Notes under the pieces: model-generated
What the model was told of the DNA's origin: nothing
Databases searched by the model: none
Seen by the model: only the letters and a program-made list of their open reading frames with translations
Shown here: positions 34,052-46,418 of the stretch, piece by piece
Numbering within the stretch: position 1 is the first letter of the stretch
How the letters are laid out: the number at the start of each line of letters is the position of its first letter
Made by a program: the position numbers and the translations under genes
From: Acidiferrobacterales bacterium
GTDB lineage: Bacteria; Pseudomonadota; Gammaproteobacteria; Acidiferrobacterales; SPGG2
DNA: 64,000 bases
Direction: 5' to 3'
NCBI GenBank assembly: GCA_046759385.1
Contig: JBHICC010000002.1
Location: 19,431-83,430, forward strand

Positions 34052-34573
34052 GTGATAACGTCAGCCGCCGCGCATGCGATCGGAAAACGATCCCGAACGA
34101 TCATCGATGCGACCGCGGGCCTGGGCCACGATGCTTTATTGTTAGCGCTGATGGGCTATGAGGTTACGGCTATCGAGCGCTCCCCTATTATTGCAGCGTT
34201 GTTACGGGACGGCATCATGCGCGCGCAGGAGCAGGAAAAGCTCGCGCCTGCGCTGGGCGACCGTTTCATGTTGTTAGCGGGAGACGCGCGTAAGCTATTA
34301 CCCACACTTGAGACGTGCGCGGACGTGATTTATCTTGACCCCATGTATCCGCCTAGTGCTAAGCGCTCCGCACTCCCCAAAAAAGTCATGCGCACCCTTC
34401 GCGATATCGTCGGCGATGATGCCGACACAGGCGAGTTGCTGTCAGTTGCTTTGAAGCACGCTCAAGGTCGCGTCGTCGTGAAGCGGCCGTCCAGTGCCAT
34501 GCCTATATCTACTCCCTCAACGAGCTACCGAGGCAAGATGGTGCGTTACGATGTCTATATCACCCCCGCGTGA
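34052..34573 (+). CDS. rsmJ: 16S rRNA (guanine1516-N2)-methyltransferase RsmJ, methyltransferase core only (N-terminal domain lies in another frame)
   Basis: IIDATAGLGHDALLLALMGYEVTAIERSP...VIYLDPMYP...VVVKRP is colinear with E. coli RsmJ as I recall it. The upstream frame 33907-34056 encodes the RsmJ-like N-terminus (see findings). Confidence 0.7.
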   Translation: MITSAAAHAIGKRSRTIIDATAGLGHDALLLALMGYEVTAIERSPIIAALLRDGIMRAQEQEKLAPALGDRFMLLAGDARKLLPTLETCADVIYLDPMYPPSAKRSALPKKVMRTLRDIVGDDADTGELLSVALKHAQGRVVVKRPSSAMPISTPSTSYRGKMVRYDVYITPA

Positions 34574-34643
34574 TATGACTGGGCAACACCCAGGGGCGTT
34601 TGTGTCCGACCCGATGTTTTAATTCCCCGGGCTCTCAGAAGCG

Positions 34644-35327
34644 GTGGATACGGCGACACTGGACCCGCAGGAAGCTGGCCACGCCGCCAGCGCGCGGCGG
34701 CTCGACATCGGCGACCGTATCTGCCTATTCGATGGTCAGGGAACTCTGGGGCATGCTACGGTCAGCGCAGTCAATCGGCGGGCAAGGATCCTAGAGGCAA
34801 GGGTCGAACAACGTTTGCATGTTCCCGCACCGCGGCCAAGGATAGAGCTCGCTTGTGCCTTGCCCAAGGGTGATCGGCAGGCGGTGCTTCTGGATATAGC
34901 GACACAGCTGGGGATGATTGTTTTTACACCACTTGAGTGCGAGCGCAGCGCAGTGAAACGGACGGCAGCCGTGAATCGGCGTTGGCAGCGGATCTGTCTT
35001 GAGGCGTGCAAACAGAGTCGACGTGCCTACCTGCCGGCAGTCCGCAACCCTGGCCGTCCTGCGGAAGTCGTCGGCGAAGCGGCACGCGCAGGGCGCACGA
35101 TCTGGGTTGCACATCCATCGGAAATGTCCCGGTCGCTGGACCATGGTGACGAGTCTGCCGATGCTTTGTTGGTGGTCGTGGGACCCGAGGGAGGATTTAC
35201 CGACGAGGAGGTCTTGCAGATGCAACGCGCCGGGGCGCACATTATCTCGCTGGGCTCGGCGATGTTCAGGGTCGAGACGGCCGCCATCGCGTTGCTGGCT
35301 TTCGTTGCACTTCGCCCTGGCCATTAG
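34644..35327 (+). CDS. rsmE: 16S rRNA (uracil1498-N3)-methyltransferase RsmE (5' end possibly frame-disrupted)
   Basis: GDRICLFDGQG, LPKGDR, VVGPEGGFTDEE and RVETAAIA are RsmE/SPOUT motifs. The GTG start at 34644 gives a protein about 15 aa short at the N-terminus. Confidence 0.75.
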   Translation: MDTATLDPQEAGHAASARRLDIGDRICLFDGQGTLGHATVSAVNRRARILEARVEQRLHVPAPRPRIELACALPKGDRQAVLLDIATQLGMIVFTPLECERSAVKRTAAVNRRWQRICLEACKQSRRAYLPAVRNPGRPAEVVGEAARAGRTIWVAHPSEMSRSLDHGDESADALLVVVGPEGGFTDEEVLQMQRAGAHIISLGSAMFRVETAAIALLAFVALRPGH

Positions 35328-35520: not shown

Positions 35521-35850
35521 ATGTCTTGGGACACTGAACCGGTCGTAGGACAGTGGTACCGCCAATTGGATAAAGGCTATGAGTTTAAGGTCGTGGCGGT
35601 CGACGAAGACGAAGGGATCGTGCATATTCAGTACCTCGACGATGAGGTCGAGGAGCTTGATATCGACTCGTGGTACGAGTGGGATGTTGAAACGATCGCG
35701 CCGTACGATAAGATCAGTCGGTCAGGTGACACGTTAACGCCAGACGAAGTAGCTGGTGTGCCCAGCGAATCGCGTAGCGATTCGCACGATGAAGACGTAG
35801 ACGAAGAGGAAGACGACAACGATACACTCGACGGCTGGGAAGACCGCTAG
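35521..35850 (+). CDS. small acidic conserved hypothetical protein
   Basis: 109 aa starting with ATG. VGQWYRQLDKGYEFKVVAVDEDEGIVHIQYLDDEVEELDIDSWYEW, followed by an Asp/Glu-rich tail. It resembles a widespread gammaproteobacterial small-protein family; the name is not verified. Confidence 0.6.
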   Translation: MSWDTEPVVGQWYRQLDKGYEFKVVAVDEDEGIVHIQYLDDEVEELDIDSWYEWDVETIAPYDKISRSGDTLTPDEVAGVPSESRSDSHDEDVDEEEDDNDTLDGWEDR

Positions 35851-36551
35851 AAATCTGTTGTCAATACGGAAAGCGCCTATACACGTTTCGGCCGACCGGG
35901 ATCTTTACCCCTCTCATTCGCAACCCTCCGTAAGAGTTATCTCCAGTTTTACGCAGTCGACACCGCGCTCTGTTGAGGCGCGATATGCACGTTGCTTATT
36001 CGGAAGAGCACATTTGCGCACAAATGGATTAAACAACGATTCAACATTGGCCACAGTGTTGAATTGCGTACCGTCTACTGCACGATTTCACATGCGCATC
36101 GAAAATAGGACGAACCGTTTGCATATCGTGTCCAGGCGCGAAGCGTTTCTATCTAGCGTAAACACACGCGAAAGACGGAGTGCAGTGCAGAAAAAACGGC
36201 TGCAAGTAGCACATTCGAGCACCCAAAACAAGTTAGCGTTCCCAGATACAGTGACTAGAATTACATTAAATGGCATGGGTTCAGTGACTTATAGGAGTCA
36301 GGTGATCGTGAGCTATGCGCTGATGCGTTCACGACGACGATGTCATATTTCAGGTCAGATGTCCTTCGTCATGTGTGGGGTTGAGCGATGTTGAATGTTG
36401 TATTCGTGCGTTTTTGCACGTACGCGTTGCGACTTGCGACTGCCGATTTTGGTAAGTACTTGCGCGAAACGCCAATACGTTGGCGTGTGCGTAAATCGCT
36501 TGATTCGTGCAGGGAATGGAGCAAATAGCTGGGATCCCACACTAACTCTAC

Positions 36552-36567
36552 TGGCACAATATATGCA
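36552..36567 (+). promoter_or_regulatory. sigma54-type (-24/-12) promoter upstream of prkA
   Basis: TGGCACAATATATGCA. GG (36553-54) and GC (36565-66) are separated by exactly 10 nt, matching TGGCAC-N5-TTGCA in 10 of 11 specified positions. It lies about 88 nt upstream of the prkA ATG. Confidence 0.55.
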
Positions 36568-36653
36568 GCAAAAGGAACTATATGTGACTGTCGAAGTCTT
36601 CCATTTTAGGTAGTCACATAGCTAACACGGTCGGCAACCGGGGAGTGGCAGCT

Positions 36654-38588
36654 ATGATGCTAGAGGAAAAGAGAAGGTTTGCTGAGCTTATCGAGAAAGA
36701 CCGTGCACAACATGGAAGCCATACGTGGCACGGAACTTTTCTCGATTACCTTGAGAAGGTCAAGGAAGACTCATCAATGCCCAGGCTTTCGCACTCACGC
36801 CTTTATGATGTTGTTATCAAAGAGGGCGTCGAGGACAGCAGCGAATCCGGTGATCCGAAGCTCGCCCGCCTTTTTGGCGATGAACCCGTTAAGGTTTACA
36901 ACTTCTTCAAGGATGAGTTCTTCGGTATTGAACGAACCGTCGCCCACATCGTTCGTTATTTCCACTCTGCGGCCTTGCATGGCGAGGAAAGTCGCCAGGT
37001 TCTGTATCTCATGGGACCGGTCGGTGCCGGGAAGAGCTCTCTCATCGACAAGGTGCAGCGGGGGCTTGAGCAAAGCCCGCCTGTGTACGCGATCGAAGGT
37101 TGCCCGATGGCCGAAGAGCCGTTGCATTTAATCCCGCAGCACCTACGTAAAGAGTTTGAAAAGATGATTGATGTGCACATCGAGGGCGAGCTTTGCCCGG
37201 TGTGCCGCTATCGTCTTAAGGAAGAGTTCAAAGGTCGTTACGAGGATGTGCCGATTGTGCGGGTGCCGTTTTCGCGCCACGAGCGTAGTGGCATCGGCGT
37301 GGTGCCTCCCGTGGATCCAAACAATCAAGATACCTCGGTGCTCATCGGGTCCGAGGACATATCGAAGCTCGACACATACTCAGAGGGCGATCCACGTGTG
37401 CTTGACCTCAACGGCGCCTTCAATGTCGGCAACCGCGGCGTGGTTGAGTTTATCGAGGTGTTCAAGAACGAGGCCGAGTACCTGCACACGATGATCACGG
37501 CCACGCAGGAGAAGTTCATTCCAGCGCCAGGCCGTCACGGTACTGTGTACGTTGACACGGTGATTGTCGCGCATTCAAACGAGGCAGAGTGGCAAAAGTT
37601 CAGGGGCGACAATACGAACGAAGCGATTCTAGACCGCATTGTCGTCATAAAGGTGCCCTACAACCTGCGGCTCTCGGAAGAGATCAAGATATATCAGAAG
37701 ATGCTGCGCCAGTCCGACTTCCGTGCGCACATCGCACCGCATACGCTCGGGGTCGTGAGCATGTTCGCGATCCTCACCCGCCTTGAGCCGACCGCCAAGT
37801 GTGACTTGATGACCAAGTTGCGGTTGTACGATGGTGAAGAGGTGGTCGAGAAAGGCAAGACCCTTAAGATCAACGTGCGCGAGCTTCAGGAGGAGGCGCG
37901 CCGCGAGGGTATGTTCGGCATTTCCACTCGCTTTATTATGAAGGCGTTGGATAACGCGCTGGCCGACAGTCCCGAGGGAATTAATCCAATCAACGTACGC
38001 GAGGCGTTGATTAACATGGTGAAGGCGGCAGACCTGCCGGATGATACCCGCAAACACTATCTGGAATTCTTGCAGGATACCTTGCATAAGGTCTATTTGG
38101 AGCTATTGGAGAAGGAGATCACGAAAGCCTTTGTGTACTCGTTCGAGGAGCAGGCAGACGCGCTTTTCCAGAACTACCTGGACCACGCCGAGGCGTACGT
38201 CAACAAGACCAAGGTGAAAGATCGCAATACCGGCGAGGAGCTGCAGTCAGACGAGGGGTTCCTTAAGTCGGTTGAAGAGCAGATCGCCATCATCGGTTCG
38301 GCAGCGGACGGCTTTCGCCAAGAAGTCATGGCCTATCTATGGGCGGCCACACGACGCGGCAAGAAGGTAAGTTATCAGTCCTACGAGCCGCTGAAGGAGG
38401 CCATTGAGAAGAAGCTAATGAGCTCGGTTCGCGACATGAGCCGCATTATCACCAAAGCGCGAACACGCGACGAAGAGCAGGCGAAGAAGTACGATGATCT
38501 GCTGGCGGCGCTTATTGAGCGCGGATACAACGAGCACGCGGCAGAAGTCATACTGAAGTATGCAGCCAACAACCTCTGGAAGGACTAA
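36654..38588 (+). CDS. prkA: PrkA-family serine protein kinase (YeaG/PrkA)
   Basis: Colinear with B. subtilis PrkA as I recall it (W.GTF.DYLE.VKE, Walker A LMGPVGAGKSSL, AHSNE.EW, VPYNLR.SEE.KIY.K). ATG 36654 has GGGGAG 8 nt upstream; the ORF track begins at GTG 36645. Confidence 0.9.
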   Translation: MMLEEKRRFAELIEKDRAQHGSHTWHGTFLDYLEKVKEDSSMPRLSHSRLYDVVIKEGVEDSSESGDPKLARLFGDEPVKVYNFFKDEFFGIERTVAHIVRYFHSAALHGEESRQVLYLMGPVGAGKSSLIDKVQRGLEQSPPVYAIEGCPMAEEPLHLIPQHLRKEFEKMIDVHIEGELCPVCRYRLKEEFKGRYEDVPIVRVPFSRHERSGIGVVPPVDPNNQDTSVLIGSEDISKLDTYSEGDPRVLDLNGAFNVGNRGVVEFIEVFKNEAEYLHTMITATQEKFIPAPGRHGTVYVDTVIVAHSNEAEWQKFRGDNTNEAILDRIVVIKVPYNLRLSEEIKIYQKMLRQSDFRAHIAPHTLGVVSMFAILTRLEPTAKCDLMTKLRLYDGEEVVEKGKTLKINVRELQEEARREGMFGISTRFIMKALDNALADSPEGINPINVREALINMVKAADLPDDTRKHYLEFLQDTLHKVYLELLEKEITKAFVYSFEEQADALFQNYLDHAEAYVNKTKVKDRNTGEELQSDEGFLKSVEEQIAIIGSAADGFRQEVMAYLWAATRRGKKVSYQSYEPLKEAIEKKLMSSVRDMSRIITKARTRDEEQAKKYDDLLAALIERGYNEHAAEVILKYAANNLWKD

Positions 38589-38685
38589 CCGGCTCTAATC
38601 CGCCGCAAACAGGCGCGTCAGTGGTAGGCGTACGCGCCCGGTTCGGGATATGCACGGTCAGCGACTCAACGGATAGCGCACCAGC

Positions 38686-39876
38686 ATGACCACCGTTTTC
38701 CGCCCCTACTCCCACTCCGACGCGCTGCGCTCCGACCGCAGCGCCGGTGATCGTTTGCGACACCGGCAGAAAGTCCGACAAGCCATACGCGAGAACATTG
38801 CTGACATCGTTGCCGAGGAATCGATCATCGGGCAAGGACGCGACAAGATCATCAAAGTCCCCATCCGCGGCGTCAAAGAATACCGTTTCGTTTTCGGCGA
38901 TAACACGCCCGGTGTCGGCACCGGTGATGGCGACTCGCAACCGGGCCAGGTGATTGGCAAGGCCGAGGGGCATGGGCAAGGCGCCGGTCGCGGCGGCGAC
39001 CAGCCCGGCGTCGACTACTATGAGACCGACGTCACGCTCGAGGAGCTGGTCGAGATCATGTTCGAGGATCTTCAGCTCCCGGAGATGGAACGGAAAAAAC
39101 TGCGCGAAGTATTGGCAGAGCGTTCAAGCAAACGCAAGGGATATCGTCGTGTCGGCGTACGCGTGCACATGGACAAGCGGCGCACAGCAATAGCGCGGGT
39201 GCGCCGGCGTGTCGCCAGTGGTCGGCACGCGGCCGTTGTCGAAATCGCCCCCGAGCCCGAGTCCGAGCGTTTTCCGTTTCACCGAGATGACATCCGGTTT
39301 CGTCGACTGCGCCAGGAATCAAAGCCGCAGTCCAATGCGGTCGTGCTCTGCATTATGGATACGTCCGGCTCGATGGATACGATCAAGAAATACCTGGCGC
39401 GCAGCTTTTTCTTTGTGCTCTTTCAGTTCGTCCGTGCGCGCTACACGAACGTTGAGGTCGTTTTCATCGCGCACCACACGCGTGCGCGCGAGGTAACGGA
39501 GGAGGAGTTCTTTCACAAGGGAGAGTCCGGCGGGACCTATATCTCTTCGGGTTACGTGAAGGCACTAGAGATCGTGCAGGCACGGTACCACCCGTCCTTA
39601 TGGAACATCTACGCGTTTCACTGCTCGGACGGCGATAATTTCCCGAACGATAACGCTGCTGCGCTGCGGGCGGCGCGAGGGCTTTGTGAGGTCGCGAACC
39701 TTTTCGGTTATGGCGAGATCAAGCCATTGAATTCCAGCCACTACGAGGATTCAATGCTGCAGCTCTTCAAGTCGTTAAAGGTGCCGAATTTTCATTCCAT
39801 ATTGATCGAGCGCAAGGAAGACATATGGCCGAGCTTTAAGGCGTTTCTGTCGCGTGAGCGGGAGGAGCAAACTTAG
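38686..39876 (+). CDS. yeaH: YeaH/YhbH family protein (DUF444, vWA-like)
   Basis: 396 aa with N-terminal DR.RH..KV..AI and MIDAS-like IMDTSGSMD. It is second in the prkA-yeaH-spoVR trio. Confidence 0.85.
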   Translation: MTTVFRPYSHSDALRSDRSAGDRLRHRQKVRQAIRENIADIVAEESIIGQGRDKIIKVPIRGVKEYRFVFGDNTPGVGTGDGDSQPGQVIGKAEGHGQGAGRGGDQPGVDYYETDVTLEELVEIMFEDLQLPEMERKKLREVLAERSSKRKGYRRVGVRVHMDKRRTAIARVRRRVASGRHAAVVEIAPEPESERFPFHRDDIRFRRLRQESKPQSNAVVLCIMDTSGSMDTIKKYLARSFFFVLFQFVRARYTNVEVVFIAHHTRAREVTEEEFFHKGESGGTYISSGYVKALEIVQARYHPSLWNIYAFHCSDGDNFPNDNAAALRAARGLCEVANLFGYGEIKPLNSSHYEDSMLQLFKSLKVPNFHSILIERKEDIWPSFKAFLSREREEQT

Positions 39877-39909
39877 CCCTTCTGAACGCGCGCATAGGAG
39901 ATAAGACTC

Positions 39910-41370
39910 TTGAGTCGGCCTTGGAACGTAAAAGATCTCGAATACTGGGACGCGAAGATCCTTGAGAAGGTCCAGGAGTTCAACCTGTCCTGTTTCCCGC
40001 AGGAGTTTGAAATCTGCGATCACGAGCAGATGCTTGGTTACATGGCCTACTCCGGCATGCCCTCGCACTATCCACATTGGTCGTACGGCAAGAGCTACGA
40101 AAAGCTAAAGACACTCTATGATTACGGCGTCAGCGGGTTGCCTTATGAGATGGTGATCAACGCAAGCCCGTCGCTGGCGTACCTGATGGGTGGCAACTCG
40201 TTGTGTTTGCAGGTTCTCACCATCGCGCACGTCTATGGTCACAACGACTTTTTCCGAAACAACTTCACGTTCCGCGACACCCGCCCGGAGCTGACGATAA
40301 ACAACTTTAAGGTTCGCGCCGATCGGGTGCGCGCGTATGCGGAGGACCCGTCGGTCGGCTCCCTCAAAGTGGAAGAGTGCTTGGACGCTGCGCACGCACT
40401 TTCGATGCAATGCCGTCGCAACGTTGCTATCCGCAAGCTTTCACGCGAAGAGCAAGAGCGACAGGCACTCGATGCGGCTAAGCCGCCGCCCGATCCGTTT
40501 CATACGATTCATAAGGCGCCGGAATACGAGGAGCCCGATCTGACCAAGGTACCACTGGAGCCGGAGGACGATATTCTGCTTTTTATCCGCGACCACAATC
40601 CGTATCTCGCCGAGTGGCAAAAGGATCTTCTTACGATCGCCCATGACGAGGCGCAGTATTTCATTCCCCAGATCGAGACCAAGATCATGAATGAGGGGTG
40701 GGCGAGCTACTGGCATCACAAGATAATGAACAGTCTCGACCTGCCGGAAGATCTGCATATGGAGTTCTTGGTGCACCACAATCAGGTGGTACGCCCGCAT
40801 CTTGGCAACGTTAATCCTTATTACCTGGGTTTCAAGCTATGGCACGACATCCGTCGTCGTTATGATGATCCGACGCCAGAAGAGATCGAAAAGTACGGTC
40901 AACCTGAGAAAAGCGGTACCGAGAAGATCTTTGAGGTGCGCGAAGTCGACCGCGACGTATCGTTCCTGCGTCGCTTCCTCAGCGAGGAGTTGATGCGGGA
41001 GATGGATATGTTTCAGCATGAGCGCCGTGGCGACGAGATCGTGATCAGTCATGTGTCCGATGAACAAAGCTGGCAAAAGGTCAAGGACACCTTGCTAAGA
41101 AACGTCGGAATGGGGTCCATGCCAGTCATCCGCATCCTCGACGCGGACTATGAACACAACCGCGTTTTGTACTTGGCGCATGATCACGACAGTCGCGACC
41201 TACAGCTCGAGTACGCGGAGAAGACCCTTGCATACCTGTATCAGCTGTGGGGTCGGGACGTTTTGCTAGACACCAGTATCCAGGGTACCGGCTACCTCTT
41301 TTCCTACGGGAAAGACGGGTTCAACCAGAAGCGCACCGGCCGCAGGGCCGAGTCTACGGCCACCAGCTGA
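39910..41370 (+). CDS. ycgB: SpoVR/YcgB family protein
   Basis: 486 aa with a TTG start. PQEFEICDHEQMLGYMAYSGMPSHYPHWSYGK and NEGWASYWH are SpoVR-family motifs. Confidence 0.85.
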   Translation: MSRPWNVKDLEYWDAKILEKVQEFNLSCFPQEFEICDHEQMLGYMAYSGMPSHYPHWSYGKSYEKLKTLYDYGVSGLPYEMVINASPSLAYLMGGNSLCLQVLTIAHVYGHNDFFRNNFTFRDTRPELTINNFKVRADRVRAYAEDPSVGSLKVEECLDAAHALSMQCRRNVAIRKLSREEQERQALDAAKPPPDPFHTIHKAPEYEEPDLTKVPLEPEDDILLFIRDHNPYLAEWQKDLLTIAHDEAQYFIPQIETKIMNEGWASYWHHKIMNSLDLPEDLHMEFLVHHNQVVRPHLGNVNPYYLGFKLWHDIRRRYDDPTPEEIEKYGQPEKSGTEKIFEVREVDRDVSFLRRFLSEELMREMDMFQHERRGDEIVISHVSDEQSWQKVKDTLLRNVGMGSMPVIRILDADYEHNRVLYLAHDHDSRDLQLEYAEKTLAYLYQLWGRDVLLDTSIQGTGYLFSYGKDGFNQKRTGRRAESTATS

Positions 41371-41490
41371 AGCCCTTTCCTGCCATCGAATAGCGGCGCC
41401 CATGCCGCCTGCACGCTATGGCATGTGTGCTGCCTTACGAGCCGCTTGCGTCTTGCGGCCCGATTCCTAATACTTTGGTCCCTTGCACTT

Positions 41491-41502
41491 AGGACTAGGA
41501 GG
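41491..41502 (+). repeat. 12-mer AGGACTAGGAGG (left copy of inverted pair flanking the EF-G-like gene)
   Basis: The exact reverse complement is at 43704-43715. A third 10-nt copy (GACTAGGAGG) is at 43806-43815. Confidence 0.8.
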
Positions 41503-41520
41503 ACAGTGGGGAGCTAAGCG

Positions 41521-43566
41521 ATGTCCAGCTACGATACTGAAAACATTAGAAATATAGCCCTAGTTGGTCACGCCCTGGCGGGCAAGACGACACTCACAGA
41601 GGCGCTATTGCATGGTGCCGGCGCTATCAATACGCCGGGGTCGGTGGAGAAAGGCAGCACGGTCACCGACTTCGAGCCGGAGGAGAAGGAGTACCAACAC
41701 TCGCTCAATGCGGCGGTCGTGAGCCTCGATCACAGTGGTACCCACGTCAATCTGATCGATACGCCAGGCTTTCCCGACTTTATGGGTCAGGCCCTCAGCG
41801 CGCTGCCGGCGGTTGAAACTATGGCGTTGGTTATCAATGCGCAAGCCGGTATCGAGATGGTGACACAGCGCATGATGGAGCGGGCCACCGAGCGCGATCT
41901 TTGTCGCATGATCGTCATCAACAAAATCGATGCGCATGACATCGATCTCCCAGCCTTGTTGTCGAGAATCCAGGAAAGTTTCGGCAAAGAATGCCTCCCT
42001 ATTAACTTGCCGAGCGGGAGCGGTGAGTCTGTTGTCGATTGTTTCTTCAACCCGGGCGGCGGCAGCGCGGATTTCTCCTCTATCGAGGAGGCCCACACGC
42101 GGATTGTGGATCAGGTGGTAGAGGTTGACGAAGACCTGATGACTGTATACCTGGACCAGGGTGAGGTAAGCCCGGATCAATTGCATGACCCGTTCGAGAA
42201 AGCGTTACGCGAGGGACATTTGATTCCAGTGTGCTTTATCTCGGCACGTACCGGAGCTGGCGTTAAGGAGTTGCTAGAGATCTTCGCCAAGCTCATGCCA
42301 AACCCCAAGGAAGGCAACCCACCGCCGTTTATCAAAGGTGAAGGCGCGGATGCGGAACCCGTCGCTGCGGAGCCGGATCCGAGCAGGCATGTGTTGGCGC
42401 ACGTGTTCAAGGTCGCTGTGGATCCGTTTGTCGGCAAGCTCGGGGTGTTTCGGATTCACCAGGGCACGGTAACGAAGGATACGCAGCTTTATATCAATGA
42501 TTCCCGCAAGCCTTTCAAGGTCGGGCATCTTTTCAAGCTACAGGGTAAAGAACACACAGAGACCGACCTTGGCGTACCGGGCGATATCTGTGCCGTCGCC
42601 AAGGTCGAGGACATCCGTTTCGATGCGGTTCTGCACGACTCGCACGACGAGGATCAATACCACCTGCGGCCGATGGATTTACCCAAGCCGATGGTCGGGC
42701 TCGCCATCGAACCAACAAAACGCGGAGATGAGCAAAAAATCTCGAGCGCTTTGCAAAAGCTAGCCGCCGGGGATCCAACTTTGGTCATAGAGCACAACGC
42801 GGCGATGAATGAGACTGTAATTCGCGGTCTCGGCGATCTGCATCTGCGTGTGATACTCGAGAAGATGAAGGACCGATACAACGCGGAGGTGAAAACCCGC
42901 CCGCCGAAGATTCCGTATCGCGAGACCATCAGTGCGAACGCGGAGGGGCACCACCGCCACAAGAAGCAAACAGGGGGCGCCGGTCAGTTCGGCGAGGTAT
43001 TCTTGCGCGTCGAGCCGTTGCCGCGCGGAAGCGGCTTCGAATTCGTCGATAAAGTCGTCGGTGGCGTGATCCCCAATCAGTTCATTCCGGCAGTCGAGAA
43101 GGGTGTCCGTCAGGTGATGGAATCCGGGGCGATCGTGGGCTACCCCATGCAAGATATCAGGGTCACCGTTTGCGACGGCAAACATCACTCAGTTGACTCG
43201 AAGGAAGTCGCCTTCGTGGCGGCGGGTAAGAAGGCTTTCCTCGACGCCATACAGAAGGCCAAGCCGCTCGCACTCGAGCCCATCGTTAACATCGAGGTGA
43301 TCGCGCCGGATGCTAACATGGGCGATATCACCGGTGACCTGTCGGGTAAGCGAGGCCGAATCAATAACACCGAAACGCTGCCGGGCAATATGGTCTCTAT
43401 CACGGGAACAGTCCCCCTGAGCGAGCTAAACAATTACCAGTCGAAGCTCAAATCTGTCACCGGTGGCCAAGGCTCGTACGCGATCGAATTCAGCCATTAC
43501 GAACCGGTGCCCCCCAACGTGCAGCAGCAGCTCGTCGCCGAGTACAAGCCGGGTAAGGAAGAGTAA
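41521..43566 (+). CDS. elongation factor G-like GTPase (EF-G paralogue, atypical switch II)
   Basis: 681 aa. G1 GHALAGKTT, G3 DTPGFPDF (canonical DTPGHxDF), G4 NKID. EF-G domains II-V are recognisable (e.g. GDLHL..ILE.M, HHRHKKQTGGAGQFG). Confidence 0.85.
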   Translation: MSSYDTENIRNIALVGHALAGKTTLTEALLHGAGAINTPGSVEKGSTVTDFEPEEKEYQHSLNAAVVSLDHSGTHVNLIDTPGFPDFMGQALSALPAVETMALVINAQAGIEMVTQRMMERATERDLCRMIVINKIDAHDIDLPALLSRIQESFGKECLPINLPSGSGESVVDCFFNPGGGSADFSSIEEAHTRIVDQVVEVDEDLMTVYLDQGEVSPDQLHDPFEKALREGHLIPVCFISARTGAGVKELLEIFAKLMPNPKEGNPPPFIKGEGADAEPVAAEPDPSRHVLAHVFKVAVDPFVGKLGVFRIHQGTVTKDTQLYINDSRKPFKVGHLFKLQGKEHTETDLGVPGDICAVAKVEDIRFDAVLHDSHDEDQYHLRPMDLPKPMVGLAIEPTKRGDEQKISSALQKLAAGDPTLVIEHNAAMNETVIRGLGDLHLRVILEKMKDRYNAEVKTRPPKIPYRETISANAEGHHRHKKQTGGAGQFGEVFLRVEPLPRGSGFEFVDKVVGGVIPNQFIPAVEKGVRQVMESGAIVGYPMQDIRVTVCDGKHHSVDSKEVAFVAAGKKAFLDAIQKAKPLALEPIVNIEVIAPDANMGDITGDLSGKRGRINNTETLPGNMVSITGTVPLSELNNYQSKLKSVTGGQGSYAIEFSHYEPVPPNVQQQLVAEYKPGKEE

Positions 43567-43703
43567 CGGACGACCGGCGAAGTGGGCTTTTTGGCCGTGA
43601 TTGCGCGTGAAAAGCCTGTTTTCGGTGGCGCCTGAACCACGCTGAGCGTGAGCAAGAACTCCCTGCCATATTACTGCACCGCAGCAATTTTCTCACCGAC
43701 CCA

Positions 43704-43715
43704 CCTCCTAGTCCT
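43704..43715 (-). repeat. 12-mer CCTCCTAGTCCT (right, inverted copy of AGGACTAGGAGG)
   Basis: Exact reverse complement of 41491-41502. It also pairs with GACTAGGAGG at 43806-43815 across an AT-rich 90-nt spacer. Confidence 0.8.
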
Positions 43716-43736
43716 TTTTAAAACAACCCTGCCCTC

Positions 43737-43765
43737 TTGACAGTTAACGTTTTACTAGCGATTAT
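43737..43765 (+). promoter_or_regulatory. candidate sigma70 promoter upstream of exeA
   Basis: TTGACA-N17-GATTAT inside the only strongly AT-rich patch of the EF-G/exeA spacer, about 180 nt upstream of the exeA ATG. Confidence 0.35.
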
Positions 43766-43944
43766 TTTTTTAAGACAATGTTTTATCGGGATATTTGGTG
43801 TCATTGACTAGGAGGGGGTAGCAAGCCTGTTGCAAGGACTTTCGGGCCGTGAAAAGCACGCATGCTGGCGGCGTTGGGCGAATGCGTGCGTAGGGTTTCG
43901 AGCGACGGCACTCACTCGCGCTCCAAGGTCGTGGAGGAGGGACT

Positions 43945-45726
43945 ATGTATAATCGCCATTTCGGTTTGAAAGAAAACCCCTTCTCGATCGCTCCCGATCC
44001 CCGCTATCTATATCTAAGTCGGCGCCATCAAGAGGCGCTGGCGCATCTGATCTATGGAGTTACGGAGGGCGGTGGTTTTGTCCAACTGACGGGGGACGTT
44101 GGTGTCGGCAAGACCATGCTGATTCGCGCGCTGCTAGAACGTCTTCCCGATGACGTCGACGTCGCATTGATCCTGTATCCCATTTTATCGGTGCAGGAGT
44201 TCGTCTGCGCCATCTGCGATGAGTTGCGTATTCCCTACTCGAAGGAAAGCGTGTCGCTGAAGGTGCTCATTGACGCACTGAATGCATACCTGCTGGAGAA
44301 TCACGCGAAAGGTCGGCGTACAGTGTTGATCATCGACGAGGCGCAGAATCTCAGTCGCGATGTGCTCGAGCAGTTACGACTATTGACGAATCTGGAAACG
44401 AACACAGAAAAACTCCTGCAGATCCTGCTTGTCGGGCAGCCTGAGCTCAGCAACATGCTCGCTCAGCGCGATCTTCGCCAACTCGCGCAGCGGATTACCG
44501 CACGTTACAGTTTGAAGGCGCTGTTCCCACACGAGACGTCGGACTACATCATGCACCGATGTCGCGTCGCCGGAGGAAAGTCACCGATGTTCAGCCGATC
44601 AGCGGCGCGCTGGGTACACAGATTATCCGGGGGTGTGCCAAGAACGATCAACATTGTCTGTGATCGCGCACTGCTCGGTGCCTATGCACGTGGGAAGACA
44701 GACGTTCCTGCAAGCACCGTCCGTCGTGCGGCGGACCAGGTCGGGCGTGACGTGCCGAAGCGCTTCTTCTTGCGGCCCAGCGTGCTGGCGTTGGTGCCGT
44801 TGACCGCGCTGGCAATGGTAGGGGGTTGGCAGTTTTCGCCGACGTTTATGGACATCTGGAACGGTGATGGGCCTGTTGCCCTTGTGTCGTCGCCGTATGC
44901 CCAGGTTGCGACCTCGCTGCCCGAGCCGTCAGCGCAAGGGGTGATCGCAGCACAAGAGAAGCAAGAACCCGTTGCCAGGACCCGCAGCGAGCCCACGGTT
45001 AAGGCCGAGCAAGCCCCTGGGGGATTGCCAGAAGCCGCGGTCGTTGCTAAGTCTGTTTCAGCCGAGGAAGGCAAAACGAAGGAGCCGACCGTTGCGGAAG
45101 TGCTGGCCAGCCCGCAGACAGCGACCGATACGGAAACGGCATTTACTGGATTATTTGCCCGCTGGGGTCTCAATTACGGGTCCTTGCCCGGGAACACAGG
45201 CTGCGCGCGTGCTGCCAAATCGGGTCTACGTTGCATCTTCCGGTCGGGAACGTGGAATAACCTACGGCACTTGAATCGACCCGCTGTTATCGAGTTGATC
45301 GACGACAAGGGCCAAAAACACCATGTACTTGTTTCAGCCCTCGATGGCGACCGCGTTGCCTCGGATTTCGGCGGCGAGCAATACGAGTTCCCGATCAGCG
45401 AACTGGACCGCTACTGGTATGGGCAGTATCTGTTGCTGTGGAAGCCACCCATATCGAGCAAGCGCACGCTTCGTCGAGGCACGCGAGATAAGTCGGTTAT
45501 ATGGTTGCGTAACGCGCTAGCACGATACAACGGTAAATCCGCGTCATCCAGCAACAGCCGCATGTTCGACAAAGATCTTGAAGAACAGGTCAAGGCTTTT
45601 CAGCGCGATCATCATCTGCTCGACGATGGCGTGGTTGGCAGGTTGACATTAATTCAGCTTAATACCTACGACAATGGCAACACGCCACCGTTGCTCTGGG
45701 ATGCGAAGAAGGCGCGAACAGGATAG
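43945..45726 (+). CDS. exeA: ExeA/GspA-like AAA+ ATPase with C-terminal peptidoglycan-binding domain
   Basis: FGL.ENPFSI.PDPRYLY N-terminus, Walker A GDVGVGKT, Walker B LIIDEAQNL, and a C-terminal PG_binding_1-like LEEQVKAFQRDHHLLDDGVVGRLTLIQL. Confidence 0.85.
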   Translation: MYNRHFGLKENPFSIAPDPRYLYLSRRHQEALAHLIYGVTEGGGFVQLTGDVGVGKTMLIRALLERLPDDVDVALILYPILSVQEFVCAICDELRIPYSKESVSLKVLIDALNAYLLENHAKGRRTVLIIDEAQNLSRDVLEQLRLLTNLETNTEKLLQILLVGQPELSNMLAQRDLRQLAQRITARYSLKALFPHETSDYIMHRCRVAGGKSPMFSRSAARWVHRLSGGVPRTINIVCDRALLGAYARGKTDVPASTVRRAADQVGRDVPKRFFLRPSVLALVPLTALAMVGGWQFSPTFMDIWNGDGPVALVSSPYAQVATSLPEPSAQGVIAAQEKQEPVARTRSEPTVKAEQAPGGLPEAAVVAKSVSAEEGKTKEPTVAEVLASPQTATDTETAFTGLFARWGLNYGSLPGNTGCARAAKSGLRCIFRSGTWNNLRHLNRPAVIELIDDKGQKHHVLVSALDGDRVASDFGGEQYEFPISELDRYWYGQYLLLWKPPISSKRTLRRGTRDKSVIWLRNALARYNGKSASSSNSRMFDKDLEEQVKAFQRDHHLLDDGVVGRLTLIQLNTYDNGNTPPLLWDAKKARTG

Positions 45727-45728
45727 CG

Positions 45729-46418
45729 ATGTCCTACATACTCGACGCGCTAAAAAAGTCTGAAGAAGAACGCGAGCTCAGCCACATGCTCGACTCCGAG
45801 AACGACGGACTGAGTGCTTCTCTGAAGCGACCGTTTTGGCCAGTCGCGATCGGCTTGGCACTGCTTTTGATCGTTTCACTGACTTCGCTGCGGGTGTGGT
45901 GGCAGGCCGATGAACCCCAAACAGTTACCATGGCCGAGCCTATAGCGCAGGTCGCGCCTAGTCTTGCGCAGAGATCGTCGGCGACCAAGCTGGAGCCGGT
46001 CACCAAAGTGGCCGTAGGCGATCTGGCCGAGCAGACACGGCTGGCTGCGAAGAAAGCCCAGCGGAGGAAAATTACCCAGACCAAGACGCGCCATGTAGAA
46101 CCGGCCATGCCTAAGGTGTCGCAGGCCGCTGCCCGGCAGACCACGATTCCGGCACTCACACCGCGGGGGCCGCAAGAGCTAGCAGCCGTGCCCTTTCTCC
46201 GGCAGATGCCGAACGAGTTTCGCCGCAGCATCCCGAAGCTCGCGGTGAACGTGCACCTATACTCGGCGGACGAAGCCGAGAACCTGGTGTACATAAATAA
46301 CCGCCAATACCGCAAGGGCGAGCAGATCAAAGGCGGCCTGCGGCTAGAGGAGATCGTAGAGGAAGGTGTCGTCCTCAGCCGTAACGGGGTCTACTTCAAG
46401 CTCCCCAGACCTAACTGA
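45729..46418 (+). CDS. exeB: ExeB/GspB-like protein
   Basis: MSYILDALKKSEEERE N-terminus, one TM helix, and a conserved C-terminal LxLxxIxxxGVVL-type segment. Immediately follows exeA. Confidence 0.75.
   Translation: MSYILDALKKSEEERELSHMLDSENDGLSASLKRPFWPVAIGLALLLIVSLTSLRVWWQADEPQTVTMAEPIAQVAPSLAQRSSATKLEPVTKVAVGDLAEQTRLAAKKAQRRKITQTKTRHVEPAMPKVSQAAARQTTIPALTPRGPQELAAVPFLRQMPNEFRRSIPKLAVNVHLYSADEAENLVYINNRQYRKGEQIKGGLRLEEIVEEGVVLSRNGVYFKLPRPN

Follow-up and report, generated by a model that had tools for sequence, protein, structure and literature searches.

Gene organisation and motifs

The DNA analysed here is a 64,000-nt stretch of an Acidiferrobacterales bacterium (contig JBHICC010000002.1; hereafter the window). 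All coordinates are positions in this stretch, and clade relatives and loci from other genomes are labelled L001 and so on. The gene under study, at 41521..43566 on the plus strand, is a 681-aa ORF that encodes a paralogue of elongation factor G (EF-G) of the EFG II type. It is preceded on the same strand by prkA (36645-38588), DUF444/yeaH (38686-39876) and spoVR (39910-41370). A Shine-Dalgarno-like GGGAG was located at 41509..41513 (+), 7 nt before the ATG, and an AGGAG/AGGGG element was kept at the Shine-Dalgarno position in the clade relatives. The protein was 100% identical to the NCBI entry 'MAG: elongation factor G [Acidiferrobacterales bacterium]'. The Pfam domains GTP_EFTU, EF-G_D2, EFG_III, EFG_IV and EFG_C were identified in it, which is the five-domain architecture of EF-G. 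An AlphaFold model of the protein (pLDDT 85.1) gave approximately 690-706 aligned columns with full-length EF-G structures. However, the fold search with this model did not separate EFG I from EFG II, as both were among the top matches.

The motifs of the G domain were all located on the plus strand. The G1/P-loop GHALAGKTT (residues 16-24, 41566..41592) contains the EFG II signature Gly16 and is followed by Leu25; its position 19 was Leu whereas canonical factors have Asp (AHIDAGKTT). The G2/switch I sequence YQHSL (residues 58-62, 41692..41706) replaced RGITI, with Ser61 in place of the Mg-coordinating Thr. In the G3/switch II motif DTPGFPDF (41758..41781; LIDTPGFPDF covers residues 78-87), F84 (codon TTT, 41770-41772) stands in the column of the catalytic His. 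The guanine-specificity motif G4, NKID (residues 134-137, 41920..41931), was intact and the G5 (SA) motif was also kept. The domain IV loop KKQTGGAGQFGE (residues 481-492, 42961..42996, +) is the equivalent of the EF-G domain IV tip, of which H556 (43186-43188, +) is also part. The tip elements of domain IV are the part of EF-G that reaches the decoding centre. An earlier note on this DNA, made from the letters and the ORF translations, had described the 681-aa ORF with five EF-G domains and the G1 and G4 motifs, and the ORF and Pfam results agreed with that description.

Assignment to the EFG II family

Bacterial EF-G was divided by Margus et al. 2011 (Margus, Remm & Tenson; PMC3150367) into EFG I, spdEFG1, spdEFG2 and EFG II. 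What defines EFG II in that scheme is the loss of the RGITI G2 motif, whose fourth residue is Ser instead of Thr, together with a number of signature positions (PMC3150367). The G2 pattern of the beta/gamma-proteobacterial EFG II sub-subgroup is xxHSL (PMC3150367), which the YQHSL of the window protein fits. In the family, represented by a close set of 120 cluster representatives with 67-100% identity to the window protein, H60 was found in 116, S61 in 118 and L62 in 118. For the type I signature positions, which are Gly16, Leu25, Ser61, Thr291, Gly333 and Lys352 in 1WDT numbering (PMC3150367), the window protein had five of the six expected residues (G16, L25, S61, G342 and K361), the exception being V298 where Thr291 is expected. 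For the type II positions D216, V250, L264, K471, K472, E513 and G603 (PMC3150367), six of the seven were present (D203, V237, L251, K481, K482 and E526), while N616 was found where Gly603 is expected; position 616 was Gly in 60 and Asn in 37 of the 120 relatives.

Model scores showed a similar picture. The NCBIfam model NF009891 (PRK13351.1-1, an 'elongation factor G' equivalog) was passed with 1039.9 bits against a cutoff of 597 and covered positions 1-678 of the 681-position profile. The score with the canonical EF-G model TIGR00484 (492.5 bits) was below its cutoff of 659.4, and the EF-G2 models of other phyla, such as the Bacteroidetes-specific NF058620 (500.7 against 1000), were likewise not passed. 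When the G domain was searched alone, the top three PDB matches were the solved EFG II proteins 9k0z, 1wdt and 7uvp, ahead of TetM and all canonical EF-Gs. Domain II alone scored better with EFG I structures than with 1WDT, and for this reason the subfamily assignment was based on the NCBIfam model, the G domain and the signature positions.

The gene was located outside any str operon, with spoVR and a gspA-like gene as its neighbours, and no second EF-G gene was found in the 64-kb window. The five domains, xxHSL, Gly16, Leu25, Gly342, Lys361, Lys481, Lys482, Glu526 and the position outside the str operon are all shared with the beta/gamma-proteobacterial sub-subgroup. The differences from this sub-subgroup were not essential and consisted of Phe84 against mostly Tyr, Val298 against mostly Thr in EFG II, and Asn616 against Gly in half of the family. 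Canonical EF-G (FusA, EFG I) and Tet(M)-type proteins have the overall fold and the ribosomal binding site in common with the window protein. However, they keep DTPGHxDF, the P-loop Asp and RGITI, FusA is encoded by a gene of the str operon, and this protein of the window scored below the cutoffs of their models. Membership of EFG II, in its beta/gamma-proteobacterial sub-subgroup, is regarded as secure on these signatures and scores, and the protein is an ordinary member of a family known since 2011 and not a new kind of protein.

Loss of the catalytic histidine

Residue-by-residue alignments with T. thermophilus EF-G (DTPGHVDF) and TetM (DTPGHMDF) confirmed that F84 occupies the column of the catalytic His, so that the reading of DTPGFPDF as a switch II without this residue in the earlier note was correct. 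A shifted or compensating His near switch II, which would have undone that reading, was ruled out since no His was present within 8 residues on either side of F84. H75 aligned with a non-catalytic His that is also present in canonical EF-G.

None of the 120 close relatives had His at position 84, which was Tyr in 94 of them, Leu in 17 and Phe in 9. A distant set was taken from the best 150 representatives of 50%-identity clusters (34-67% identical, some of them fragments), and the G3 motif was recognisable in 113 of these. In the 113 distant representatives the residue in the His column was Tyr in 64, Phe in 17, Ala in 9, Ser in 6 and His in 6. The switch II of the solved EFG II members is DTPGYADF in M. 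smegmatis, DAPGYGDF in T. thermophilus and DCPGSDDF in B. thetaiotaomicron. Judged from these sequences, the missing catalytic His is the norm for the EFG II family. The suggestion in the earlier note that the window gene encodes an unusual paralogue was thus not upheld, as all 120 close relatives and 107 of the 113 distant ones are without the His.

The four nearest relatives for which DNA was available all had Tyr at position 84, encoded by TAC or TAT, against TTT in the window; because the closest relatives carry Tyr, Phe84 of the window protein is a recent single-base change. The free interchange of Tyr, Phe and Leu at this position points to a residue that is hydrophobic or structural and not catalytic. 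Position 19 of the P-loop also varied and was Gly in 63, Leu in 29, Ala in 13, Asn in 7 and Asp in 4 of the 120 relatives. The P-loop Asp of translational GTPases reportedly helps to coordinate a catalytic monovalent cation. Overall, three catalytic elements are gone from the window protein, namely the switch II His, the P-loop Asp and the RGITI switch I motif with its Thr replaced by Ser, and impaired canonical GTP hydrolysis is plausible on this basis. The lost His by itself is no proof of a dead enzyme, because T. thermophilus EF-G-2, which does not have this His, is reported to hydrolyse GTP.

Selective constraint and domain conservation

The dN/dS of the window gene against its clade relatives was 0.07-0.14 where dS was measurable, which indicates that the gene is under strong purifying selection. 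Residues G16, G21, K22, T23, D80, P82, G83, N134, D137 and S241 were invariant or nearly so among the relatives, and in the G4 motif of the 120 relatives N was conserved in 118, K in 113 and D in all 120. The predicted nucleotide-binding equipment (G1, DxPG, NKxD and SA) is thus kept. Domain IV was the most conserved domain, with a mean conservation of 0.845 and 37% invariant columns. K481, K482 and H556 were invariant in 120 of 120 relatives, and the KKQTGGAGQFGE loop was invariant in a 24-sequence alignment save for the nearly invariant T484. With domains II-V present and the tip of domain IV as the most conserved part, the equipment predicted to dock at the ribosomal factor site is kept as well.

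Transcriptional organisation of the spoVR-EFG II region

The gap between the end of spoVR at 41370 and the ATG of the EFG II gene was exactly 150 nt. The length of this gap and the lack of a terminator in it had both been given in the earlier note and both were confirmed here: the terminator scan of the gap was negative and its RNA fold was no more stable than shuffled sequence (z = -0.6). In addition, a search of 41200-44000 gave no Rfam match with E ≤ 1. The sole conserved stretch of the gap was a promoter-like block, CGCTTGCGTC-N-GATTCCTAATACT, at 41444..41475 (+), with a -35-like TTGCGT at 41446-41451 (+) and a -10-like TAATAC/AATACT at 41468-41474 (+). In four clade members the gap was 150, 176, 182 and 256 nt long and could not be aligned outside this block. 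The form of the block across the clade was CGCTTGCGTC, a variable spacer and GATTyCTAATACT, in which the hexamers were conserved while the spacer of 15-17 nt varied. Because the synonymous sites between the clade genomes are saturated, the block is considered to be under selection.

The same element, as CCTTGCGTC-N16-TATACT (TTGCGT-N16-TATACT), was found 75 nt ahead of the orthologue in L087/L088, which is 71% identical. These loci formed the sister lineage of the window's clade in a neighbour-joining tree, and the neighbours of their EFG II gene were unrelated (nitroreductase and cold-shock protein) with no prkA. TATACT was present on the coding strand within 150 nt upstream in 10 of 73 distinct upstream regions; the opposite strand had it in 0 and shuffled sequence in 1.1. 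In E. coli, a C followed by TATACT is a -10 element favoured by sigma-S. From these features we infer that the sigma factor for the block would be sigma-70/sigma-S-like.

Upstream of prkA, a sigma-54-type site TGGCACAATATATGCA was located at 36552..36567 (+), approximately 78 nt before the gene. The exact motif TGGCAC-N5-ATGCA had its sole match in the window at this site, with 0.17 matches expected, and the four clade relatives (L081, L082, L085 and L086) all had the site in the corresponding position ahead of prkA. This suggests that the PrkA operon of the window's clade may be RpoN-dependent. RpoN dependence is also reported for yeaGH of E. coli under nitrogen starvation.

The most economical model would comprise three transcription units, which are a sigma-54-driven prkA-yeaH-spoVR, the EFG II gene under a promoter of its own with the weak hairpin and U-run behind its stop codon, and the gspA/gspB-like pair with its sigma-70-like promoter match. 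Obligatory co-transcription of the EFG II gene with prkA appears unlikely because the promoter-like block in the gap is common to an orthologue in an unrelated context and because prkA has its own sigma-54-type site. The idea in the earlier note that the gene may be co-expressed with the PrkA module therefore stands only in part: no terminator separates the two, but a conserved promoter-like block, which the earlier note had overlooked, lies between them and prkA has a separate sigma-54-type site. Three points weigh against a promoter that belongs to the EFG II gene itself. Its hexamers match the sigma-70 consensus weakly, at approximately 7 of 12 positions, and the promoter scan gave no flag; the putative promoter is assigned by conservation only; and with no terminator found after spoVR, read-through from the prkA operon is possible. 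Downstream of the gene, an A/U-rich hairpin followed by UGUUUUC at 43584..43622 (+), which starts 18 nt after the EFG II stop, is a weak terminator candidate; its fold was not above shuffled stability and the terminator scan did not flag it.

Linkage to prkA-yeaH-spoVR across genomes

In the clade of the window (76-86% identical), the region was fully syntenic and consisted of rsmJ-like, rsmE, DUF6763, prkA, yeaH, spoVR, EFG II, gspA-like and gspB-like genes. Since the whole region is syntenic in each clade, adjacency within a clade says little. A genome survey of 80 loci with an EFG II gene 59-78% identical to that of the window, in which prkA was sought within 10 kb, showed that prkA was absent near EFG II in 77 of the 80. 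The exceptions were two Steroidobacteraceae loci with prkA-yeaH-spoVR upstream and L010, a member of the window's clade whose upstream flank is missing. Relatives at 70-73% identity had unrelated gene contexts. prkA was also absent in eight further contexts, including those of four distant EFG II genes (41-57% identical), and clustering of the flanking ORFs found no neighbour common to more than 5 of the 80 loci.

A metagenome scan then provided 80 loci of a Steroidobacteraceae-like clade (L092-L171). Where the flank reached 800 nt or more (67 loci), spoVR preceded the EFG II gene on the same strand in 61; where it reached 4.9 kb or more (35 loci), prkA, yeaH and spoVR were all found in 30. 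The clade is not the sister of the window's clade, and the adjacency is missing from its nearest relatives. Its flanking genes also differ and include those of a TonB-domain protein and glycogen phosphorylase. Adjacency of EFG II and prkA was thus seen in only two lineages, the window's clade and the Steroidobacteraceae-like clade. Between the two clades PrkA was 37% identical and EFG II 61% identical, although within the Steroidobacteraceae-like clade PrkA was better conserved (92-95%) than EFG II (86-90%); for this reason the two PrkA operons are taken to be non-orthologous. By a rough estimate, the probability that chance brought about two independent juxtapositions of matching order and orientation is about 1%, counting the second clade only and assuming approximately 40 lineages sampled, each with a chance of about 1 in 3000 for a given neighbour. 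The conserved linkage to prkA operons expected in the earlier note was therefore not general, being absent in 77 of 80 loci and in the eight further contexts, but it did recur in one other clade, which is not a sister of the window's and whose PrkA operon is non-orthologous. The two-clade adjacency suggests a functional link, which is a lead and not a finding.

Several features of the Steroidobacteraceae-like clade argue against an operonic link. Between spoVR and EFG II there is a conserved small minus-strand ORF (L039 9672-9869, 65 aa), which was found at the same place in most of L092-L171. Its substitutions were mostly at third codon positions, which suggests that it is a real gene. Approximately nine loci of this clade (L097, L100, L101, L106, L108, L122, L161, L164 and L168) had 2-5 kb of extra DNA between spoVR and EFG II. 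A conserved block of GTAGCC, approximately 20 nt and GAGTA(G/C)GCTTTT was located approximately 90 nt upstream of the EFG II ATG, including in the loci with insertions, and may serve as a binding site for a regulator or as a promoter read by a different sigma factor.

The small minus-strand ORF encodes approximately 60-65 aa, contains KIQRQLDEALADSFPASDPVSIVTS and had no Pfam match. The GTAGCC...GCTTTT block (alignment columns ~645-685) was unlike the TTGCGT...TA(A)TACT of the window's clade. L001 and L002 ('uncultured Streptomycetaceae') and L048 ('Phycisphaeraceae') carried beta/gamma-type EFG II genes 62-70% identical to that of the window, which points to mis-binned contigs or lateral transfer. 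In L175 (5031-8058), a distant EFG II gene (45% identical) was located directly after rplM-rpsI (ribosomal proteins L13 and S9) in the same orientation; no other gene sampled had such a ribosomal context.

Predicted function of the window EFG II protein

Three EFG II members have been characterised, two of them without ribosome-dependent GTPase and one, from T. thermophilus, with it. The best match of the window protein among solved structures was M. smegmatis EF-G2 (PDB 9K0Z/9K10; 451.6 bits), which likewise has an aromatic residue (Tyr98) for the catalytic His and no P-loop Asp, and keeps the nucleotide-binding motifs and the domain IV loops. It differs in its identity of approximately 37%, in its actinobacterial sub-subgroup with G2 qqRSV, and in G4, which is TKLD against NKID; its function is experimental whereas the window protein is known from sequence. 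Tyr98 points away from the gamma-phosphate and the ribosome-dependent GTPase of this protein is minimal (bioRxiv 10.64898/2026.05.25.727771; Baid & Sengupta 2025, FEBS J). It does not recycle ribosomes, binds the non-rotated 70S and is termed stress-specific, and in the canonical background of M. smegmatis EF-G1 the substitution H88Y nearly abolished GTPase (bioRxiv 10.64898/2026.05.25.727771).

B. thetaiotaomicron EF-G2 (PDB 7UVP/8DMF) is also an EFG II protein without the His (DCPGSDDF) and without the P-loop Asp. It is approximately 32% identical to the window protein, from which it differs by Ser instead of an aromatic residue at the His position, by NQLD as G4 and by Cur control. According to papers that summarise Han et al. 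2023 (EMBO J 42:e112372), it performs translocation without GTP hydrolysis, and its gene is up on carbon deprivation while fusA falls. T. thermophilus EF-G-2 (PDB 1WDT/2DY1; Connell et al. 2007) is an EFG II protein with DAPGYGDF and GHAGSGKTT, and its N-terminal numbering matches that of the window protein exactly. Despite Tyr at the His position and no P-loop Asp, it is reported to have ribosome-dependent and raised intrinsic GTPase and to support poly(Phe) synthesis, and it is the counter-example to the view that a missing His means no hydrolysis.

On balance, we consider it somewhat probable that the window protein is a non-canonical second EF-G. It would bind GTP and the ribosome and promote slow translocation with little or no GTP hydrolysis. 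Its gene would have a sigma-70/sigma-S-like promoter to itself within the 150-nt gap and would not be an obligatory fourth gene of the sigma-54-driven operon. By analogy with B. thetaiotaomicron EF-G2, its role may be that of a low-cost elongation factor in slow growth or starvation, and the link to PrkA, if any, would be parallel starvation control or a functional interaction. A role in translocation is favoured over mere occupancy of the ribosome because of the strong selection on the domain IV tip. The proposal in the earlier note that the protein binds GTP and ribosomes but does not hydrolyse GTP in the canonical way remains plausible given the M. smegmatis and B. thetaiotaomicron precedents, but it is not new. 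Nor is the hydrolysis deficiency guaranteed, since T. thermophilus EF-G-2 is reported to hydrolyse GTP and to translocate despite its Tyr and its missing P-loop Asp. This counts against the proposed function, and so do two further points: M. smegmatis EF-G2, the best PDB sequence match, is described as a stress-specific regulator on non-rotated ribosomes and not as a translocase, and the function presumed for beta/gamma-proteobacterial EFG II proteins is carried over from members of other branches.

The other readings of the protein itself differ from this one mainly in what happens on the ribosome. A stress factor of the M. smegmatis EF-G2 type would bind the factor site of idle 70S/50S in stationary phase without translocation or recycling and would silence or protect ribosomes, which comes close to the idea of the earlier note. 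This is a tentative possibility that we hold to be rather unlikely. It draws on M. smegmatis EF-G2 as the best solved-structure match (DTPGYADF) with its minimal ribosome-dependent GTPase, absence of recycling, binding to non-rotated 70S and stress-specific character, and on the precedent for EF-G or eEF2 on hibernating ribosomes (including PDB 9pyc). However, the two proteins belong to different EFG II sub-subgroups at an identity of only approximately 37%, no hibernation partner gene was found nearby, and the strongest conservation was in domain IV tip residues that act in translocation and that occupancy would not obviously need. At the other end, a fully active back-up translocase of the T. 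thermophilus EF-G-2 type would hydrolyse GTP with a differently arranged active site and serve as a simple second elongation factor. The reported GTPase and translocation of EF-G-2 without the His and the P-loop Asp agree with such an enzyme, and Gly16, which Margus et al. (PMC3150367) tied to a higher intrinsic GTPase, is invariant in the family. Nevertheless we regard it as improbable, since Tyr, Leu and Phe at residue 84 have no catalytic group in common and would not be a substitute general base, H88Y in the canonical EF-G background nearly abolishes GTPase, and two of the three characterised EFG II proteins are without ribosome-dependent GTPase. Tet(M)/Tet(O)-type proteins, which protect the ribosome from antibiotics, have the five-domain EF-G-like fold in common with the window protein, there were partial matches to tetracycline-protection models, and the B. 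thetaiotaomicron EF-G2 structure 7uvp was deposited as TetQ. Yet all Tet-specific models scored far below their cutoffs (308.1 bits against 775 for NF012153), TetM keeps DTPGHMDF and AHVDAGKTT, and the domain IV loop of the window protein is EF-G-like. A Tet-like protection protein was rejected on these model scores and is given next to no credence.

A different kind of alternative places the EFG II protein within the PrkA system as a functional fourth component of the PrkA-YeaH-SpoVR module, either through read-through co-transcription or as a target or effector linking PrkA signalling to the ribosome. The order prkA-yeaH-spoVR-EFG II on one strand is kept in the window's clade, the same order recurs in the non-sister Steroidobacteraceae-like clade (spoVR in 61 of 67 loci, all three genes in 30 of 35), the 37% identity of the second PrkA argues for two independent juxtapositions, and no terminator was detected after spoVR. 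Against this stand the EFG II gene's own conserved promoter-like block, common to an orthologue that is not beside prkA, and the absence of prkA within 10 kb in 77 of 80 loci (with L010 having no flank) and in eight further contexts. The minus-strand ORF and the 2-5 kb insertions in approximately nine loci intervene in the second clade, and whole-region synteny makes conservation within a clade little informative. Furthermore, no publication in the library searched ties yeaG/yeaH/ycgB to elongation factor G. We therefore consider membership of the module unlikely. A functional coupling of EFG II and PrkA-YeaH-SpoVR, for example with PrkA controlling a switch from EF-G to EFG II in starvation or with EFG II as substrate or effector, is likewise doubtful. 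A literature search on fusA2, RpoS and stationary phase found nothing relevant, and a paper on B. thailandensis stationary-phase omics made no mention of EF-G.

The window gene adds one member to the family described in 2011 and does not change the understanding of that family. The extent to which EFG II proteins have lost the catalytic His is made visible by the survey. The EFG II members studied so far are those of T. thermophilus (2007), B. thetaiotaomicron (2023) and M. smegmatis (2025). The beta/gamma-proteobacterial branch is without a studied representative and could be a tractable system. The presence of prkA-yeaH-spoVR beside EFG II in two independent lineages is a testable lead into the output of the PrkA/YeaG starvation pathway, and a link between PrkA and EFG II, if true, would join this pathway to translation elongation.

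Other features of the region

The prkA-yeaH-spoVR operon spans 36645..41370 (+) with internal gaps of 97 nt and 33 nt. Its YeaH homologue passed TIGR02877 'spore_yhbH', a Bacillus equivalog, with 471 against a cutoff of 467.95, while its PrkA, with 429.6 against 576, did not reach the cutoff of the enterobacterial YeaG model. The PrkA operon of the window is accordingly of a Bacillus-like type, as TIGR02877 was passed and the YeaG model failed. The Steroidobacteraceae operon (L039) was a third and more divergent type, with a PrkA 37% identical to that of the window.

Downstream of the EFG II gene, a sigma-70-like promoter match TTGACA-17-GATTAT was located at 43737-43765 (+). It is followed by a GspA-like gene at 43945-45726 (+), which encodes an AAA_22 ATPase with C39-like and peptidoglycan-binding domains, and by a GspB-like gene at 45729-46418 (+). 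The gspA/gspB-like pair was syntenic only in the close clade. The GspA-like protein also matched an XrtA/PEP-CTERM-associated ATPase model below its cutoff (258 against 324.5).

Upstream of prkA, approximately 800 nt (35851-36644) separate it from a DUF6763 gene (35521-35850). The sole ORF in this interval (35858-36394) has a TTG start and no Pfam match and may be spurious; the interval could hold sigma-54 enhancer sites or a non-coding RNA. Finally, 34052-35327 (+) carries an RsmJ-like SAM_MT gene, whose ORF may be short at its 5' end, and an RsmE-like Methyltrans_RNA/PUA gene. These rRNA methyltransferase genes, just upstream of DUF6763-prkA, were syntenic throughout the close clade.

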